64,000 nt of DNA, taken from assembly GCA_963761975.1 (NCBI GenBank), contig CAVXIR010000007.1:558965-622964 (forward strand), given 5' to 3'. Origin of the DNA: Vicinamibacterales bacterium. Its GTDB lineage: Bacteria > Acidobacteriota > Vicinamibacteria > Vicinamibacterales > JAMQPK01. Shown in pieces: positions 13,973 to 19,427 of this stretch. The notes below the pieces were generated by a model, which saw only the letters and a program-made list of their open reading frames with translations, did no database searches and was not told the DNA's origin. The position numbers and the translations under genes were made by a program. Every line of letters starts with the position of its first letter. Position 1 is the stretch's first letter.

Positions 13973-14278
13973 TCGACAAGCATCTCGACGCAGAGGCAGA
14001 AAAATCAGGTAGTGGGTCAGTTTGCCCGACTATGCATCTAAAAGGCAGGTAGTGTCTCAATTAGGCTGAGTGCTCGGCGCTCACGTTGAGAGCCGGAACC
14101 GGAGCCTCCGCGCGCTCGATCATCGCCACCACGTCGGCCATGTCCCACACGCGCTCGCTGAGCGAACTGCCTGACGCCCTGCGTGCGCACGTCGAAACCC
14201 TCCGCGCGAACCAACGTAACAATGGCAACCAAATTATTCAGATTTTATTCACGCACATCGCAAAGTGCTGACGATGAA

Positions 14279-14527
14279 TCACTTACCGTGACGAGCCTGA
14301 GCCGCATCTCTGGCTATCTGTGAGCGTCGTTTGGGCGACAGGCTAGCGGCTCGCGCGATTCCACCTCGTCTACCCAGCTCTACCGCTGCTTTACTCTTCC
14401 CGTCCTTGGTCAGCGACTCGTCGATTTCGCCAGTGGCGATCTTCATGACGTGGACGGCGTTCGATACGACGTCAGCGGGGCGCTTGTGTCCCTTGGGGGT
14501 TCTCGGCATATACTTACCGCTAAGCAT
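14279..14527 (-). CDS. small basic protein with C-terminal GG-x-ARA..LSP..R..IA..AA.AR module (82 aa)
   Basis: ..AAVELGRRGGIARAASLSPKRRSQIARDAAQARHGK. Paralogous to the 17339..17596 product. Confidence 0.6.
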   Translation of the reverse strand: MLSGKYMPRTPKGHKRPADVVSNAVHVMKIATGEIDESLTKDGKSKAAVELGRRGGIARAASLSPKRRSQIARDAAQARHGK

Positions 14528-14610
14528 AGCACGGTCACCCTTAACGCTGCGTCAGGATGCCCGAGACTTTACCAAGACTCGTCCGACCAACAGATAAAAG
14601 GAGCCCGTCG

Positions 14611-14973
14611 ATGCACGAAAGCAAGGACAACCTGCCAGTTCTACTCGATGCACCCGGTGCGACCCTCCGCGCGGTTCGAGGGGGTGAGATGACGGTCGGC
14701 TATGCAAAGTGCGCCGCAGGCACAGATTTTACGCCAGTCCTCAAGGGTCTCGAGGACGACATGTGCCAGTGCCCTCATTGGGGCTATGTTCTCAAGGGTG
14801 CGCTCCACCTGCGGTACACCGATGGCCGTGAGGAGACCGTTCGGGCTGGCGAGGTGTGGTACGCGGCACCAGGCCACACAGCGTGGTGCGACGAAGATAC
14901 GGAATACATCGACGTCAACCCGTCGCAAGACTTCGCACACGTAATCGATCACATAAGGAAGCAGATGCCGTAG
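14611..14973 (+). CDS. cupin-domain protein (120 aa)
   Basis: AAGGAG RBS 7 nt before the ATG at 14611. HWGYVLKG.....G......GE.WY..PGH is a cupin-like pattern. Confidence 0.65.
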   Translation: MHESKDNLPVLLDAPGATLRAVRGGEMTVGYAKCAAGTDFTPVLKGLEDDMCQCPHWGYVLKGALHLRYTDGREETVRAGEVWYAAPGHTAWCDEDTEYIDVNPSQDFAHVIDHIRKQMP

Positions 14974-15112
14974 ATGCAGGGCTGACGAAACAAGCGGCGT
15001 CCGGGTCGCTGAAGGCTGAGCACACCGCACTCAATCAGACTGTGACACTACCAAAAGGCAAAGTAGCTTGCCTACTCAAGCCGGGTGTATAGATCCTACA
15101 CAGGAGGCTCCA

Positions 15113-15391
15113 ATGAGACTAGTGATCATACGGATGGCTGCGGCGGCTGGTTTGATTGCGCTTGGTTGGACTGCAGGCCGGGCGGCTCAAGCGCCCCAAG
15201 CGGACTTCGAGATCGCGATCGCGTCTCCAGCCGGTACCACGACCGTCACCTGTACGCGCGGTTGTGGATTGCAGTTCATCCGAATGACGCCCGACAAGTC
15301 GAAGGCTGAGCGGTCCTTCACGTATACCTGTGGCGGCGGTGGCAATGCACCCAACTGCGGTGGATCCGCCCAGGGCTGGGTGATCCGGTAG
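15113..15391 (+). CDS. small secreted Cys/Gly-rich hypothetical protein (92 aa)
   Basis: AGGAGG RBS and signal peptide MRLVIIRMAAAAGLIALGWTAGRAAQA. Confidence 0.5.
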   Translation: MRLVIIRMAAAAGLIALGWTAGRAAQAPQADFEIAIASPAGTTTVTCTRGCGLQFIRMTPDKSKAERSFTYTCGGGGNAPNCGGSAQGWVIR

Positions 15392-15397
15392 GTTGCG

Positions 15398-16228
15398 CTA
15401 GTTCAGAAGTCCGACAATCTCCTCAACACTCCACACGTGATCGCTAACACCGGCCTCCATCGCTGGCGTCACTCGCAGCGTTTGATGGACGCGGGCGAAG
15501 TTGTAATACATGAAGTAGAGGGCCACCATCGCCGCATGATTCTCGATTTTCTTGCTGAACGCGTTTGTTAGACGCGTGAAACGTCGCATAGACATCCGCA
15601 TCGTGAGGTTCTGGCGCTCAACGAAAGACGTCGAGATGTGTTTCGGATCAGGCGTCCCGTTAACCTCGGTCCGCTTGCAGCCGACGCACACGGGCGGGCT
15701 ATACCGACCACCGCCGCTACCAGCGTTCGCGTAAATCTTATGGAGTTGGGCGTAGTCGATCTCGGTGCCGAACGCGAGATCTATGGCGTTCAGATAGACA
15801 CTGTGACCGTCTGTCGTCAGTTGCACCCGGTTCGCAAGCCGTGACGCCACGTCGTGCATGAAGACGCTCCCGGTTTCAAATGAGCGGTCGCCAATCTGGA
15901 AACTGATGATGAGCTTCGCGTCCGCGTCTATCGCGGTCCACGTCCAGATATCGCCCCATCCCGCCGCCCTTGTCTCTGGCGTCGTGTTCTTTTCCTTGGC
16001 GCCAACGAACGACCAAATTTCATCGCATTGAACGCGCTTCGTAGACAGGTTCCGGATGGCGTCGTTCTGGAATTTCGAGCACGCATCGCCGAGATCTGCG
16101 AGCAGCTTGACGATAGTGTTCTTGGACGCGCCAGTCATCCGCACCGTGGACCGGATGCTGCTGCCCTCAACCAGCGCCCTCATGACCGCCGCTCGCCGTG
16201 CCGTGCTCATCTGATTCATACTGACCAT
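15398..16228 (-). CDS. IS1-family DDE transposase, single ORF (276 aa)
   Basis: N-terminal HTH (LVEGSSIRSTVRMTGASKNTIVKLL), then VQCDEIWSFV, TWTAIDADAKLI, LTTDGHSVY and SFVERQNLTMRMSMRRFTRLTNAFSKK. I recognise these as the IS1/ISMhu11-type transposase core. Confidence 0.88.
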   Translation of the reverse strand: MVSMNQMSTARRAAVMRALVEGSSIRSTVRMTGASKNTIVKLLADLGDACSKFQNDAIRNLSTKRVQCDEIWSFVGAKEKNTTPETRAAGWGDIWTWTAIDADAKLIISFQIGDRSFETGSVFMHDVASRLANRVQLTTDGHSVYLNAIDLAFGTEIDYAQLHKIYANAGSGGGRYSPPVCVGCKRTEVNGTPDPKHISTSFVERQNLTMRMSMRRFTRLTNAFSKKIENHAAMVALYFMYYNFARVHQTLRVTPAMEAGVSDHVWSVEEIVGLLN

Positions 16229-16307
16229 TATGCTTGAACGCCTTTGTATGTCGACCGTGCCTACCCCTACGCATTTGTGGTAGTATCTTACTGCATAGGG
16301 GGTATGG

Positions 16308-17342
16308 ATGGCAGACGAGAAGCCGAAAACGGCCGCCGAGTTCGGGTCGGAAGGCGGTAAGAAGCGCGCCCAGCGGTTGACGCCAGATCAGCGCCGAGAC
16401 ATCTCCAGGCGCGCGGCAGAAGCCCGATGGGGCGCTCAGGGTCGTCTGAAGGTGCTGCGCGCCACGCACGAAGGGGCACTGACGATTGCTGGCGTCGTCA
16501 TCCCCGCTGCTGTGTTGGAGGACGGGACGCGGGTGCTTTCGCGTGCAGGCTTTCTAAAGGCGATCGGACGTACGGGGAAGGCGAAAGGCGGCAGACGCTA
16601 CGACGTTGAATCCAAAGTGCCTGTTTTCTTGACCGCTGAGAACCTTAAACCCTTTATTCCTGACGACTTAGTTGCTAATTCCAACCCGGTTCCTTTTCGG
16701 CCTCTTTCTGGAGCTTCGCTCGGTCTAGCGATGGGCTACAGGTACCAGCTCCTCCCTCAGGTTTGCCATGTGTTCATGGACGCGAAGGAAGCTGACGCGC
16801 TTCGCGCCAATCAGTTGCACATCGCTGAACAGTGCCGGATTCTGAGCCGGGGGTTCTCGATTGTCGGTTTGGCGGCGCTCATCGATGAGGCTACCGGCTA
16901 TCAGAACGTCACGGATCGAGAAAAGCTCGAATCAATTCTAAATACATACCTGGGTAAGGAATTGGCCGCATGGGCAAAGCGTTTCCCTGATGAGTTCTAC
17001 CGCCAGATCTTCCGCCTTCGTGGATGGCCTTGGGTAGGACGGACCAAGAACCCGCCCCAGATTGTGGGCAAGTACACGGACATCATCGTCTACCAACGCC
17101 TGGCGCCGTCCTTGGTCGAAACGCTGCGCCGCCTGAACCCGAAAGACGAAAAGGGAAACAGGCCCCATAAACGCCACCAGTACCTAAGCGCCGACGTGGG
17201 GCATCCCGCACTGGCTCAGCACGTTCATGCGACGACTGCAATTATGCGGACCTGCAAGACGTGGCCGGAGTTCCTAGGACGGCTGAAGATGGCCTTCCCG
17301 AAGGAGACCTCGGCGGATTGGTTGCCCTTCGGCGAAGACTAG
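16308..17342 (+). CDS. P63C-domain protein with N-terminal GG-K-KRA..LTP..R..IS..AA.ARW module (344 aa)
   Basis: Central and C-terminal pattern IDEATGYQ.., FPDEFYRQIFRLRGWPW.., VYQRLAP.., NPKDEKGNR.HKRHQYL matches what I remember of the P63C (phage-derived) domain. Confidence 0.7.
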   Translation: MADEKPKTAAEFGSEGGKKRAQRLTPDQRRDISRRAAEARWGAQGRLKVLRATHEGALTIAGVVIPAAVLEDGTRVLSRAGFLKAIGRTGKAKGGRRYDVESKVPVFLTAENLKPFIPDDLVANSNPVPFRPLSGASLGLAMGYRYQLLPQVCHVFMDAKEADALRANQLHIAEQCRILSRGFSIVGLAALIDEATGYQNVTDREKLESILNTYLGKELAAWAKRFPDEFYRQIFRLRGWPWVGRTKNPPQIVGKYTDIIVYQRLAPSLVETLRRLNPKDEKGNRPHKRHQYLSADVGHPALAQHVHATTAIMRTCKTWPEFLGRLKMAFPKETSADWLPFGED

Positions 17343-17596
17343 CGCCAGCGTGCTTCAGCCGCTTTCCGGGCGATAGCCTTGCGCTTCGCGGGACTGAGCG
17401 CCTTCGCTCGCGCCTTCCCGCCCTTGGACCCTCCGAGCTTCCCTAAAGCTACGGCAGCCGGGTTCTTGCCTTCGTTCGGAGGATCAGGCAGGGGCGAGCC
17501 GTCCAGTTTCTCGCCGATAGCTTGCTCGACGACTTTGCGCGCGATTACCGTAAAATCGTGTGGCGTGCCGCTTTTCTTGCTTGAGCGCCTAGGCAT
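17339..17596 (-). CDS. small basic protein with C-terminal GG-K-ARA..LSP..R..IA..AA.ARW module (85 aa)
   Basis: ..AAVALGKLGGSKGGKARAKALSPAKRKAIARKAAEARWR. Its 3' end overlaps the stop of the P63C gene by 4 nt, in convergent orientation. Confidence 0.6.
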   Translation of the reverse strand: MPRRSSKKSGTPHDFTVIARKVVEQAIGEKLDGSPLPDPPNEGKNPAAVALGKLGGSKGGKARAKALSPAKRKAIARKAAEARWR

Positions 17597-17815
17597 ACCT
17601 CATTCTTACACAAGGAACTGTCATTTTCTGGCGGGCTGGATTCAAACTGACCCACTACCAAAAATCAGCCTCTCTTGTATTCGTGCCTCTTCGTGTTCCT
17701 GTGTGGGCCGCGTCCGCGGCCCGCGAAGTCGATGCCGCCGGTAAAATTCTGCCTCCTGATCTCCTGAGCTCCTGTTTTTGAAAGTCTCTGAGCGTCCGCG
17801 TCACTGCGTCAACGC

Positions 17816-18823
17816 TCAGCGAAGCAGAACCACGACCAACGCAATCAACGCGAGAATGAAAGCTGTGCCCGCCAACCCAAGCGCGTACACGGCGGCCTGC
17901 GGTGGAACGGTCGTCATCGTTTCGAGGAGCGTCCGAGGGCGGTCGGACAAGCCGTCGTTGAAGAGAGATTGCTGCATGACGCGCTTACCCGCAATGACGT
18001 CTTTGATTCCCTCGTCGAGATGGTGTTGCTGAATCACTTTCATCGTGTCGTGCTGAGGGGATGAGGCGGCTGACAGCGCGGCCTTCAGCACCGCATTACG
18101 GATATCGCCGCCGCTCACGGCGTATTTCTCGGCCAGCTCGCGAAAGTTCACGTCGTCTGCGAGCGGCGTCAGCGTGGGGTGCAGCTGCACGCGCCAGATT
18201 TGTTCGCGCTCGTCGACGCCGGGCATCTCGAACAGCACATGCGTGCGGATACGCCGCTCGAACGCCGGGTCGAAGTTCGCCGCCAGATTCGTGGCGAAAA
18301 TCACGACGCCGTCGAACCGCTCGAGTTCCTGCAGCAGCACGTTGACGACGATGTTCGATTCGCGCTGGTAGCCCAGATCGAGCGAGGTCGAACGGCGCGA
18401 GGCAATGGCATCGGCTTCGTCGAAGAAGAGCACGGCGTGCTCCTGGCGGGCGACGCGAAAGACCGCCGCCACGTTTTTCGGTGTTTCGCCCATCCACATC
18501 GATTCGAGCTCGGCGTATCGCACGACCAGCAACCGGCGTCCCAGCGCGTGAGCGATGGCTTCGGCGCAGATGGTCTTGCCAGTCCCGGACGGGCCAGCGA
18601 AGTTGAAGGCGAGCGAGAGACCTGTCGGGTGCCGTTGTCCAAGTCCCCATCGGTTGAAGATGAGGTCATGGCTCGTGACCTGGGCCAATGCCTGATCCAG
18701 CGACCGGCGGGTCGCGGCCGGCAGAATGACGTCGTGAAACGTGCGGCGCGGGACGGTGGACTCGACGGCCCGGCTCTGACCGGTGAGCCCTTCAAAGAGA
18801 CGGTTGAGAGGAAACGGTGCCAA
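17816..18823 (-). CDS. AAA+ ATPase with C-terminal transmembrane anchor (335 aa, TTG start uncertain)
   Basis: Walker A GPSGTGKT, Walker B LFFDEAD, second region of homology ..FDPAFERRI.. and a hydrophobic tail AAVYALGLAGTAFILALIALVVVLL. Confidence 0.85.
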   Translation of the reverse strand: MAPFPLNRLFEGLTGQSRAVESTVPRRTFHDVILPAATRRSLDQALAQVTSHDLIFNRWGLGQRHPTGLSLAFNFAGPSGTGKTICAEAIAHALGRRLLVVRYAELESMWMGETPKNVAAVFRVARQEHAVLFFDEADAIASRRSTSLDLGYQRESNIVVNVLLQELERFDGVVIFATNLAANFDPAFERRIRTHVLFEMPGVDEREQIWRVQLHPTLTPLADDVNFRELAEKYAVSGGDIRNAVLKAALSAASSPQHDTMKVIQQHHLDEGIKDVIAGKRVMQQSLFNDGLSDRPRTLLETMTTVPPQAAVYALGLAGTAFILALIALVVVLLR

Positions 18824-18833
18824 TATAGCGATT

Positions 18834-19427
18834 ATGACATCCGAATCGCTGGTCGGTATCGGCGTGGGGCTGGCGCTGGCGGCCGCAGCCGGGTTTCGCG
18901 TGTTCGTGCCGCTGCTCGCATTGAGTCTGGCGGCTCAGAGTGGATGGATCGCGTTGTCGCCGTCATTCGACTGGCTTGCCACGACACCAGCGTTGCTGGC
19001 CCTGGCAACCGCGACGATTCTCGAGATCTCCGCGTACTACATCCCGTTCCTCGACAACGTGCTCGATACCGTGGCTGCGCCTCTGGCCGTGATGGCGGGT
19101 GTCATCGCGAGCGCGTCAGTGCTGACCGATTTGCCCCCGTGGCTGCAGTACTCCATCGCCATTGTCGGCGCCGGGAGCACCGCCGGGGCCGTCCACGCGT
19201 CCACCTCGCTGCTCCGGCTGAAGAGCTCGGCCGCGACGGCCGGCTTCGGTAATCCGATTCTGGCGACGCTCGAGCTGGCCGGATCCGTCCTGATCGCGTT
19301 GCTGGCGCTCGTCGCGCCGCTCATCGCGCTGGCTGCCGTTGTGCTGATCGTGGTGATCGTCGCGAAACGCGTTAACGCGTGGCGTCTTGCGAACGCCCGC
19401 GCTGCTGTTGAATCCAGTACTCGCTGA
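18834..19427 (+). CDS. DUF4126-like polytopic membrane protein (197 aa)
   Basis: AAAGFRVFVPLL..., multiple Gly/Ala-rich TM segments. Divergent from the AAA+ gene, with start codons only 10 nt apart. Confidence 0.7.
   Translation: MTSESLVGIGVGLALAAAAGFRVFVPLLALSLAAQSGWIALSPSFDWLATTPALLALATATILEISAYYIPFLDNVLDTVAAPLAVMAGVIASASVLTDLPPWLQYSIAIVGAGSTAGAVHASTSLLRLKSSAATAGFGNPILATLELAGSVLIALLALVAPLIALAAVVLIVVIVAKRVNAWRLANARAAVESSTR

Follow-up and report, generated by a model that had tools for sequence, protein, structure and literature searches.

Nested IS1-family insertion sequences and a passenger P63C gene account for three copies of a short basic module at one bacterial locus

RESULTS

Two IS1-family elements are nested at the locus

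In a 64-kb stretch of a Vicinamibacterales bacterium contig (GenBank CAVXIR010000007.1), referred to here as the window, three open reading frames (ORFs) carry one short, strongly basic sequence module: two small genes, orfA and orfC, and between them a gene for a protein with a P63C domain (the P63C protein). An earlier reading of this DNA from the letters alone (the sequence-only reading) had assigned all three to the cargo of one transposon and suggested that they form a functional set. A repeat search combined with direct reading of the sequence, by which the element boundaries were determined, revealed two IS1-family insertion sequences (ISs) that are nested in the same orientation, an anatomy of which we are very confident. 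The coordinates of all features are collected in Table 1.

The outer element is flanked by an exact 8-bp target-site duplication, AAAAATCA, at 14000-14007 and 17660-17667. Followed along the minus strand, it runs from its left end at 17659 through orfC, the P63C gene (opposite strand), the transposase gene and orf107 (opposite strand) to its right end at 14008. orfC begins 63 bp inside the left end, and the P63C gene is convergent with it, their gene ends overlapping by 4 nt. orf107, for which no Pfam or NCBIfam family match was found, lies inside the terminal inverted repeats (IRs), between the transposase gene and the right end, and thus occupies a third passenger position.

The inner element is inserted 40 bp inside the right end of the outer one. 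Its imperfect 36-nt IRs (14048-14083 and 15017-15052), which begin with GGTAGTGTCTCAATTAGG, are related to those of the outer element, and it has an exact 8-bp duplication of its own, AAAAGGCA, at 14040-14047 and 15053-15060. An intact relative was found in a metagenomic locus (L003, 4477-6039; 1563 bp, duplication CCTCCGCG), laid out as IR, cupin gene, small gene, transposase gene and IR. There, the same cupin gene stands at the same position, and the orfA homolog is directly upstream of the transposase gene. The inner element matches L003 at 92% at both ends, and the transposase segment is missing. Because the inner element matches this intact relative and has IRs and a duplication of its own, orfA and orfC belong to two different, nested IS copies. 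Of the earlier statement that the two small genes sit at opposite ends of one element, both on the minus strand, the strand was therefore right and the placement was not, as orfA is part of the second, nested element at 14048-15052. The triple occurrence of the motif is explained by IS nesting, which contributed an outer and an inner small gene, plus one passenger gene, and not by a three-part machine; the copies reached the region by three routes, namely, with the outer IS, with the nested inner IS, and in a passenger gene.

A composite transposon was rejected, since the region, like the window as a whole, has one transposase gene and the second element is nested and devoid of a transposase. 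In another locus, two complete elements of the family lie head-to-tail, 2 bp apart (L086, 2930-5819 and 5822-8209), with IR variants beginning GGTAGTGTCTCAG and GGTAGTGGGTCAG, respectively. Together with the nesting in the window, this tandem suggests that ISs of this family are prone to insertion into, or directly beside, the ends of one another.

Table 1. Positions of the two nested elements and of the genes within them (window coordinates; IRs, inverted repeats)
Feature	Coordinates	Strand	Description
Outer IS1-family element	14008..17659	-	3652 bp; perfect 17-nt IRs GGTAGTGGGTCAGTTTG at 14008-14024 and 17643-17659
Inner non-autonomous IS1-family element	14048..15052	-	1005 bp; orfA and cupin gene, without transposase
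orfA	14279..14527	-	82 aa, pI 11.0; module at aa 42-82 (nt 14282-14404); accessory gene of the inner element
Cupin-fold passenger gene of the inner element	14557..14973	+	138 aa; Pfam Cupin_2 at E 4.6e-5, below gathering score
orf107	15068..15391	+	107 aa; outer-element passenger downstream of the transposase gene; signal-peptide-like N terminus, several cysteines
Transposase gene	15398..16228	-	Single ORF, 276 aa; IS1-family DDE transposase, InsA-like N-terminal helix-turn-helix, without zinc finger
P63C passenger gene	16308..17342	+	344 aa; module at aa 6-44 (nt 16323-16439)
orfC	17339..17596	-	85 aa, pI 11.1; module at aa 44-85 (nt 17342-17467); accessory gene of the outer IS
Spacer from left IR to orfC start codon	17597..17642	-	Probably holds the small-gene promoter (pattern match)

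The three module copies are homologous

The pattern GGxxRAxxL(S/T)PxxRxxI(A/S)xxAAxAR(W/H) was recovered from OrfA, the P63C protein and OrfC, at the positions where the sequence-only reading had placed it, and a six-frame regular-expression scan found no further copy in the 64-kb window. In BLASTP comparisons with compositional adjustment, OrfA and OrfC were 43% identical over their whole length (E 7e-7), OrfC and the N terminus of the P63C protein were 62% identical over 29 aa (E 6e-10), and OrfA and that same N terminus were 50% identical over 40 aa (E 6e-9). The motif arose in none of 200,000 composition-preserving shuffles. Moreover, the N-terminal positions of the phrog_2384 profile, the only one in PHROGs to do so, matched OrfC at 4.2e-6 and OrfA at 1.5e-3. 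The N-terminal segment ..V..(A/I)(T/I)GE.. that had been noticed in both small proteins is real as well: in an alignment of 30 sequences of the OrfA and OrfC families, A19, V22, G28 and E29 are invariant. The module extends beyond the motif as first described and includes a preceding AAVxLGxxGG, which brings it to ∼40 aa altogether. These results showed that the module is a real homologous unit without a Pfam or NCBIfam entry.

A profile built from the three window segments retrieved 9,939 representative clusters (50% identity) at E<=1e-3 among 1.84 billion representatives, most of the module-bearing cluster representatives being 50-130 aa long. The consensus is GG-x-ARA-x2-L(S/T)-x-E-x-R-x2-IA-x2-AA-x-RW, over ∼22-40 aa. 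Because many proteins hold 2-6 tandem copies, the module can be described as a repeat unit of ∼22 aa, GGxARAxxL(S/T)xExRxxIAxxAG. Tandem repeats are exemplified by P0361, P0362, P0364, P0381 and P0383, the last of which (287 aa) has an HNH-like N terminus; in P0375, two modules are joined to a Cro/C1 helix-turn-helix (HTH). Occasional fusion partners comprise the Cro/C1 HTH, an HNH-like segment, and a segment with a HELTH (HExxH-type) motif. A tblastn search with orfC found no match in annotated plasmids and phages.

The module has a pI of ∼12. Its copy in OrfC contains 13 lysines and arginines versus 1 aspartate or glutamate, with a net charge of ∼+10 over 42 aa. AlphaFold2 (AF2) predicted helices in OrfC at residues 12-27, 46-55, 57-66 and 69-84, the last two at a predicted local distance difference test (pLDDT) score of 74-85. 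The proposal of a helical hairpin thus agrees with the prediction for this homologous and strongly basic segment.

The transposase is a divergent member of the IS1 family

The transposase matched Pfam DDE_Tnp_IS1 at 38.5 bits (cut-off, 24.1 bits) and NCBIfam transpos_IS1 at E 4.8e-19, with residues 7-149 corresponding to profile positions 40-167. As the match covers these profile positions, the protein keeps the InsA-like HTH and lacks the zinc-finger part. Its score of 69 bits versus an equivalog cut-off of 100 identifies it as a divergent IS1 member. Homologs that are 54-68% identical occur across phyla. The hallmarks of the IS1 family were found at the locus: a match to the IS1 catalytic domain, terminal IRs, and 8-bp duplications, the latter for both window elements. 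An organization with insA and insB' joined by a -1 frameshift (InsAB') was rejected, since the transposase is encoded by a single ORF and the small gene never overlaps the transposase frame. The best sigma-70-like match of the region, TCGACA-16-CATAAT, lies at 16227-16254 on the minus strand; because its -10 hexamer runs into the annotated start codon at 16228, translation of the transposase may instead begin further downstream, at Met4 or Met7; a leaderless mRNA is the other possibility.

Small basic proteins are frequent accessories of this IS group

Homologs of OrfC fall into at least 3900 clusters at 90% identity and those of OrfA into at least 1631, all of them unnamed and without a Pfam domain; aligned with each other, the two families proved homologous from end to end. 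Scanning one genome per species detected at least 399 small-protein loci in at least ten phyla. Most belong to Acidobacteriota, and others to Chloroflexota, Actinomycetota, Gemmatimonadota, several proteobacterial classes, Planctomycetota, Verrucomicrobiota, Bacteroidota and more.

All loci compared here come from top-80 samples of metagenome-assembled genomes and metagenomes, each sample having been picked via one gene in question. In the fetched loci, 65 of 87 small genes had a transposase homolog downstream on the same strand within 4 kb, and for 11 of the remaining 22 the contig continues for <3 kb downstream of the small gene. The gaps between the small gene and the transposase gene range from 19 to 3544 bp, and the two genes do not overlap. 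Among IR-bounded elements sampled via the transposase, 53 of 65 (82%) contained the small gene, whatever the passenger, and it was located just inside the left IR, upstream of the transposase gene and co-oriented with it. Since 53 elements have it and 12 do not, the small gene is a frequent accessory and not an obligatory core gene.

The conserved IR GGTAGTGGGTCAGTTTGAA was present at both element ends in ∼50 of 77 loci, and 8-bp duplications were present in at least 20. Element sizes range from 1365 to 4913 bp, the smallest two-gene element (L176) consisting of the small gene and the transposase gene. Typically, the small gene ATG lies ∼65 bp from the left IR. In an alignment of 24 elements, TTGAC-N17-TGnCAnAAT is conserved between the IR and the ATG; the window copy fits this consensus less well. 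The -10-like box ends ∼6 nt before the ATG, a spacing that suggests that the mRNA leader of the small gene may be very short or absent. Distances among small proteins and among transposases co-vary modestly (rho 0.36; a value reached by 0 of 999 permutations).

Mini-elements of 640-780 bp that consist of two IRs and an intact small gene were also detected (L013, 5937-6717; L077, 5750-6410; L051, 5941-6578). Exact 8-bp target duplications flank those in L013 (781 bp) and L077 (661 bp). The inner element of the window belongs to this class of non-autonomous derivatives that keep the small gene. These data showed that the small proteins are encoded by IS-associated accessory genes and are not cargo.

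A variable slot between the small gene and the transposase gene holds passengers

The interval from the small gene to the transposase gene is usually 0.8-2.1 kb long and contains variable genes, mostly on the opposite strand (loci L008-L087). Clustering and profile searches revealed proteins that combine an HTH with an M78 peptidase in 19 loci, and these matched PADLOC PD-Lambda-2_B in 12 ORFs (E values to 3.7e-51) or RmrA in ∼8 ORFs (to 1e-149). Further slot passengers are RmrT, SoFic (4.6e-55), a DinD-like Bro-N protein (PDC-S13, 8e-101), an SDH/ClpP-like protease and an nSTAND1 NTPase. A recurrent slot partner of ∼170 aa (e.g., L009, 6243-6785) had no match in any library searched. Insertion sequences carrying passenger genes have been termed tIS (PMC7986276). 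In the window, the passengers are the P63C gene and orf107, within 14008-17659, and the cupin gene, within 14048-15052; sister elements carry other passengers. The P63C gene itself fills the passenger slot in 7 of 80 genome IS loci, and in each of these, as at the window locus, it converges on the small gene and adjoins it. P63C is thus a single example among the many passengers that this variable slot can take up.

Just outside the outer IS, a gene for an AAA+ ATPase (17816-18823, minus strand) matches PADLOC IetA models (E 2.5e-36). This gene overlaps head-to-head with one for a DUF4126 membrane protein (18783-19427, plus strand), which is not the Ietas protease partner.

The P63C protein belongs to a phage protein family that includes the module

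Pfam P63C (PF10546) matched aa 210-302 of the P63C protein at E 1.8e-31, over profile positions 1-93 of 93. PHROG 2384 covers the protein over its full length, including the module (E 2e-103; positions 8-328 of 338), and the P63C region weakly matches an antirepressor Ant PHROG (E 1.4e-7). The protein is composed of the N-terminal module, a beta-rich Bro-N-like domain at approximately aa 47-160, and the helical P63C domain at aa 210-302. In the AF2 model (pLDDT 73.6), the module forms a hairpin of helices 9-23 and 26-43, which is followed by the beta-rich and then by the helical domain. Foldseek searches of BFVD with this model returned Mx8 p63 at 8e-8 and, at E 1e-3 to 0.2, a long series of proteins of the Bro-N, antirepressor and KilA types. 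There was no match to Pfam Bro-N (PF02498) at E<=1, and none of the P63C protein, OrfA, OrfC and the transposase had a PADLOC match.

At least 3658 homologs of the P63C protein were found. Of the best 120, >100 carry the N-terminal module as judged by eye (76 by a strict pattern), 7 start directly after the module position, and 5 have a KGG/LEA-like variant. The homologs P0271, P0285, P0302, P0314 and P0334 begin with KNPAAVELGKLGGKKTAERGPEYYAEIQAKR, of which the first 13 residues match KNPAAVALGKLGG of the small protein at all but one position and the remainder resembles the KGG or group-1 LEA repeat. This similarity hints that sequence may have been exchanged between the small gene and P63C N termini. 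In P63C homologs with other N-terminal extensions, a Pfam search detected no domain that takes the place of the module.

Homologs that include the module are encoded by the cultured Stx phage 933W, Salmonella SEN34, Burkholderia DC1, Gordonia Barco and Petra, and Pseudomonas Lodos. The window protein is 35-40% identical to the cultured-phage proteins over 90-97% of the length. The 933W homolog is L0095, which is encoded in the nin region and adjoins roi. Among the best 80 viral-contig P63C loci, the module was present in 57, an IS1-type transposase in addition in only one (L128), and a small module-bearing ORF beside the P63C gene in three (L128, L090 and L101). In metagenome P63C loci, a transposase gene is located divergently upstream in 31 of 80; all 31 have the module, and 13 have a convergent small gene. 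The fusion of module and P63C is thus a phage or prophage protein family (PHROG 2384) that usually occurs away from any IS. A survey of whether P63C, the small protein and IS1-type transposases occur together, as the sequence-only reading had recommended, consequently gave a divided result: the association exists in some of the genome and metagenome loci, and the fusion is found mainly off-IS in viral ones.

IS-borne P63C proteins contained the module in 34 of 37 cases versus 58 of 83 off-IS (p=0.009; the loci are not phylogenetically independent). As to whether the IS-borne P63C genes might stem from a single capture, they were scattered on a neighbor-joining tree (29 parsimony changes among 162 tips), which is, however, a crude one. 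Four IR-bounded metagenomic ISs (L251, L254, L265 and L308) have a module-bearing P63C gene and no intact small gene; L265 keeps a 23-aa N-terminal remnant of the small gene at 2936-2868. Whether the module of P63C makes the small gene redundant received a mixed answer, as ∼half of the metagenome P63C-ISs are without the small gene and 7 of 7 in the viral sample keep it.

DISCUSSION

Taken together, the locus is best explained by nested ISs with a passenger P63C gene, a module that binds nucleic acid, and a small protein that acts like InsA. As a whole, we consider this explanation fairly probable; its mechanistic part, in which the small protein would be an InsA-like regulator of transposition with a nucleic-acid-binding module, is put forward more tentatively and may about as easily prove wrong. 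Elements of the family are composed of a left IR, a putative promoter, the gene for the small basic protein, a variable slot, a single-ORF DDE transposase gene, an optional passenger, and a right IR. In this working model, the small protein would be expressed from the promoter just inside the left IR, would probably bind the IS ends or its own promoter, and could tune transposase expression or transpososome assembly. It would thereby take the role that InsA has in IS1, the transposase of the present family being devoid of the zinc finger of InsA. Mini-elements with only the small gene might act as regulator-only or trans-mobilized derivatives. In the P63C protein, the module would serve as an N-terminal nucleic-acid anchor before the Bro-N-like domain, and the protein may be a phage-derived Bro/Ant-type regulator or a candidate defense gene that travels as a passenger.

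InsA-like regulation is suggested by the position of the small gene at the left IR, its putative own promoter, its co-orientation with the transposase gene, its retention in mini-elements, and the missing zinc finger of the transposase. By analogy, a function of the small proteins as end-binding accessory factors, one of the options offered by the sequence-only reading, is plausible. That the module binds nucleic acid is what we infer from its charge, the predicted helical hairpin, the nucleic-acid-related fusion partners, and the mobile-element context.

Several observations weigh against this model. The AF2 model of OrfC is of low confidence (pLDDT 62) and had no Foldseek match in PDB, and profile searches with OrfA and OrfC gave no Pfam, NCBIfam, PADLOC or meaningful PDB-sequence match. 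The one Pfam family with even a weak resemblance (at E<=10) was the KGG repeat, which matched 2 of 30 small proteins with a best E of 0.025; this stress-protein repeat is not known to bind DNA. For the P63C protein, the likeness to Bro-N domains was seen in structure only, against predicted models and at E 1e-3 to 0.2, and Foldseek comparison of its model with PDB found nothing significant, the top entries, SKI-DHD and the APSES protein PCG2, being hints only. Of the 12 IR-bounded elements without the small gene, two appear to be transposase-only (1000 and 1323 bp), and ∼half of the P63C-bearing ISs in metagenomes are without it as well. The way in which the loci were sampled, via one gene in question, is a further point of this kind.

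Four other explanations were weighed. One of them is chance: the segments are rich in alanine, arginine, lysine and glycine, and similarity of this sort could in principle reflect low-complexity tails. It was rejected on the composition-adjusted BLASTP E values (7e-7 to 6e-10), the shuffles, and position-specific conservation across thousands of homologs, and its probability is practically nil; the segments are not the unrelated basic tails that the sequence-only reading had named as the outcome fatal to its proposal. That proposal, in which the small proteins and P63C are one functional cargo set, for example, paired end-binding factors at the two ends that work with P63C or a three-part exclusion or addiction module, draws on the module common to all three, on the convergent and abutting arrangement of small gene and P63C in the 7 P63C-bearing genome IS copies, and on the near-constant presence of the module in IS-borne P63C proteins (34 of 37 versus 58 of 83). 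However, the last statistic is not phylogenetically independent, many P63C-bearing IS copies are without a small gene, and in the viral sample the module was found in 57 of 80 P63C loci, with an IS1-type transposase in one and an adjacent small ORF in three. Above all, orfA is part of another, nested element that is delimited by IRs and a duplication of its own, and the small gene accompanies the transposase regardless of the passenger, which makes OrfA and OrfC the normal accessories of their respective IS copies. A functional set is largely refuted by this element anatomy, and we regard it as very unlikely.

Alternatively, the small protein could serve the passengers, as a transcriptional silencer, a regulator akin to an antitoxin or a "stealth" nucleoid protein by which the burden of defense or toxic genes in the adjacent slot is kept low. 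Small size and high basicity are features that it shares with nucleoid-associated silencers, its gene is convergent with and abuts genes that are often defense- or toxin-like (PD-Lambda-2_B, RmrA/T, SoFic and Fic), and it is dispensable in some elements. Yet the small gene is conserved while passengers vary widely, and it is present in the cargo-free two-gene element L176 and kept in the L013 and L077 mini-elements, where there is no passenger to regulate, which makes this alternative quite improbable. Another alternative concerns the module, which might not bind nucleic acid at all and instead be a KGG/LEA-like hydrophilic repeat or a protein-protein hairpin, for example, for transposase binding or oligomerization. 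Its weak KGG match is the only family resemblance, it occurs in 2-6 tandem repeats as in GsiB/LEA-type proteins, some P63C homologs start with the KGG/LEA-like variant KNPAAVELGKLGGKKTAERGPEYYAEIQAKR, and AF2 confidence is moderate or low. On the other hand, the KGG scores stay below the PF10685 threshold, and the window's own proteins gave no KGG match. The charge is extreme, ∼+10 in 42 aa, with conserved arginines and lysines on a long helix, the identifiable fusion partners (the Bro-N-like domain, Cro/C1 HTH and HNH-like segment) all act on nucleic acid, and the genomic setting is one of transposons and phages. We therefore judge a non-binding module to be quite improbable, too, and prefer a module that binds nucleic acid.

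The puzzle of three copies thus has an ordinary explanation. What emerges beside it is a widespread module that lacks annotation, together with a subgroup of IS1 elements that transports defense genes. The module is very common and unnamed in databases, and soil bacteria contain thousands of IS-borne copies that are nearly identical. The small ORFs are best annotated as part of the IS and not as independent hypothetical genes. The IS1 subgroup is distinctive in its conserved accessory protein and its slot for defense genes, and it bears on the movement of defense genes between phyla. As P63C sits where sister elements carry defense genes, it is possibly defense related, and phage exclusion, another earlier suggestion, is plausible for the passenger slot by analogy with those genes. 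The P63C family is present in Shiga-toxin phages, and its context near defense passengers and its Bro-N-like fold provide a functional clue. A bolder reading would join these strands: the small protein would represent a new class of IS-encoded regulator that defines a pan-phylum IS1 subgroup, itself a vehicle for single- and two-gene anti-phage systems, and the combination of module, Bro-N-like domain and P63C would be a new defense or counter-defense effector whose module shares the nucleic-acid targets of the small protein. This is unlikely to hold in full; if true, the shared targets would explain the loss of the small gene in P63C-carrying IS copies. In the searchable literature, we found neither the small protein nor the module described, nor the IS1 subgroup or its regular passenger slot, and nothing relevant on the function of P63C or on passenger genes of IS1; ISfinder was not queried.

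Comparison with known systems

The elements resemble IS1 in the DDE domain, the InsA-like HTH, the 8-bp duplications, and the small basic protein whose gene precedes the catalytic region at the left end. Like that of insA, the promoter of the small gene, putative here, is located in or next to the left IR. IS1 ends begin with GGTGATG or GGTAATG, and the terminal IRs of the elements described here begin with GGTAGTG. In contrast to IS1, there is no -1 frameshift fusion, and the small gene and the transposase gene are separate, 19 bp to 3.5 kb apart; most copies also have passenger genes between the two. Unlike InsA, the small protein has neither a zinc finger or HTH nor CxxC motifs and is not an InsA homolog; its resemblance to InsA is one of position and, by analogy, possibly of function.

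With the KGG repeat (PF10685; YciG/GsiB-type), the module shares a glycine pair after a basic residue and a short hydrophilic unit capable of repetition, whereas its ARAxxLSPExRxxIAxxAAxxRW helix is not part of the KGG motif. The P63C protein matches the phage proteins of PHROG 2384 and P63C type (933W L0095, SEN34 and Mx8 p63) over the full length of the family, including the module, but its gene lies inside an insertion sequence of a bacterial chromosome and not in a phage regulatory (nin-type) region. To our knowledge, no function is known for this family. Its likeness to Bro-N proteins and antirepressors (Ant, Roi and DinD-like) consists in the predicted beta-rich domain, the Ant PHROG match, and the 933W homolog next to roi. 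A DinD-like Bro-N protein (PADLOC PDC-S13) fills the same IS slot in a sister element. The P63C protein differs from them in having no Pfam Bro-N match, the likeness being to predicted structures only.

The mini-elements differ from ordinary miniature inverted-repeat transposable elements in that an ORF is retained. Like tIS, the elements are IR-bounded units with one transposase, genes unrelated to transposition, and a target duplication of their own. They differ from tIS in that the slot is regular and family-wide, with a fixed position and orientation, and often contains defense genes, and in that it is accompanied by a conserved small accessory protein.

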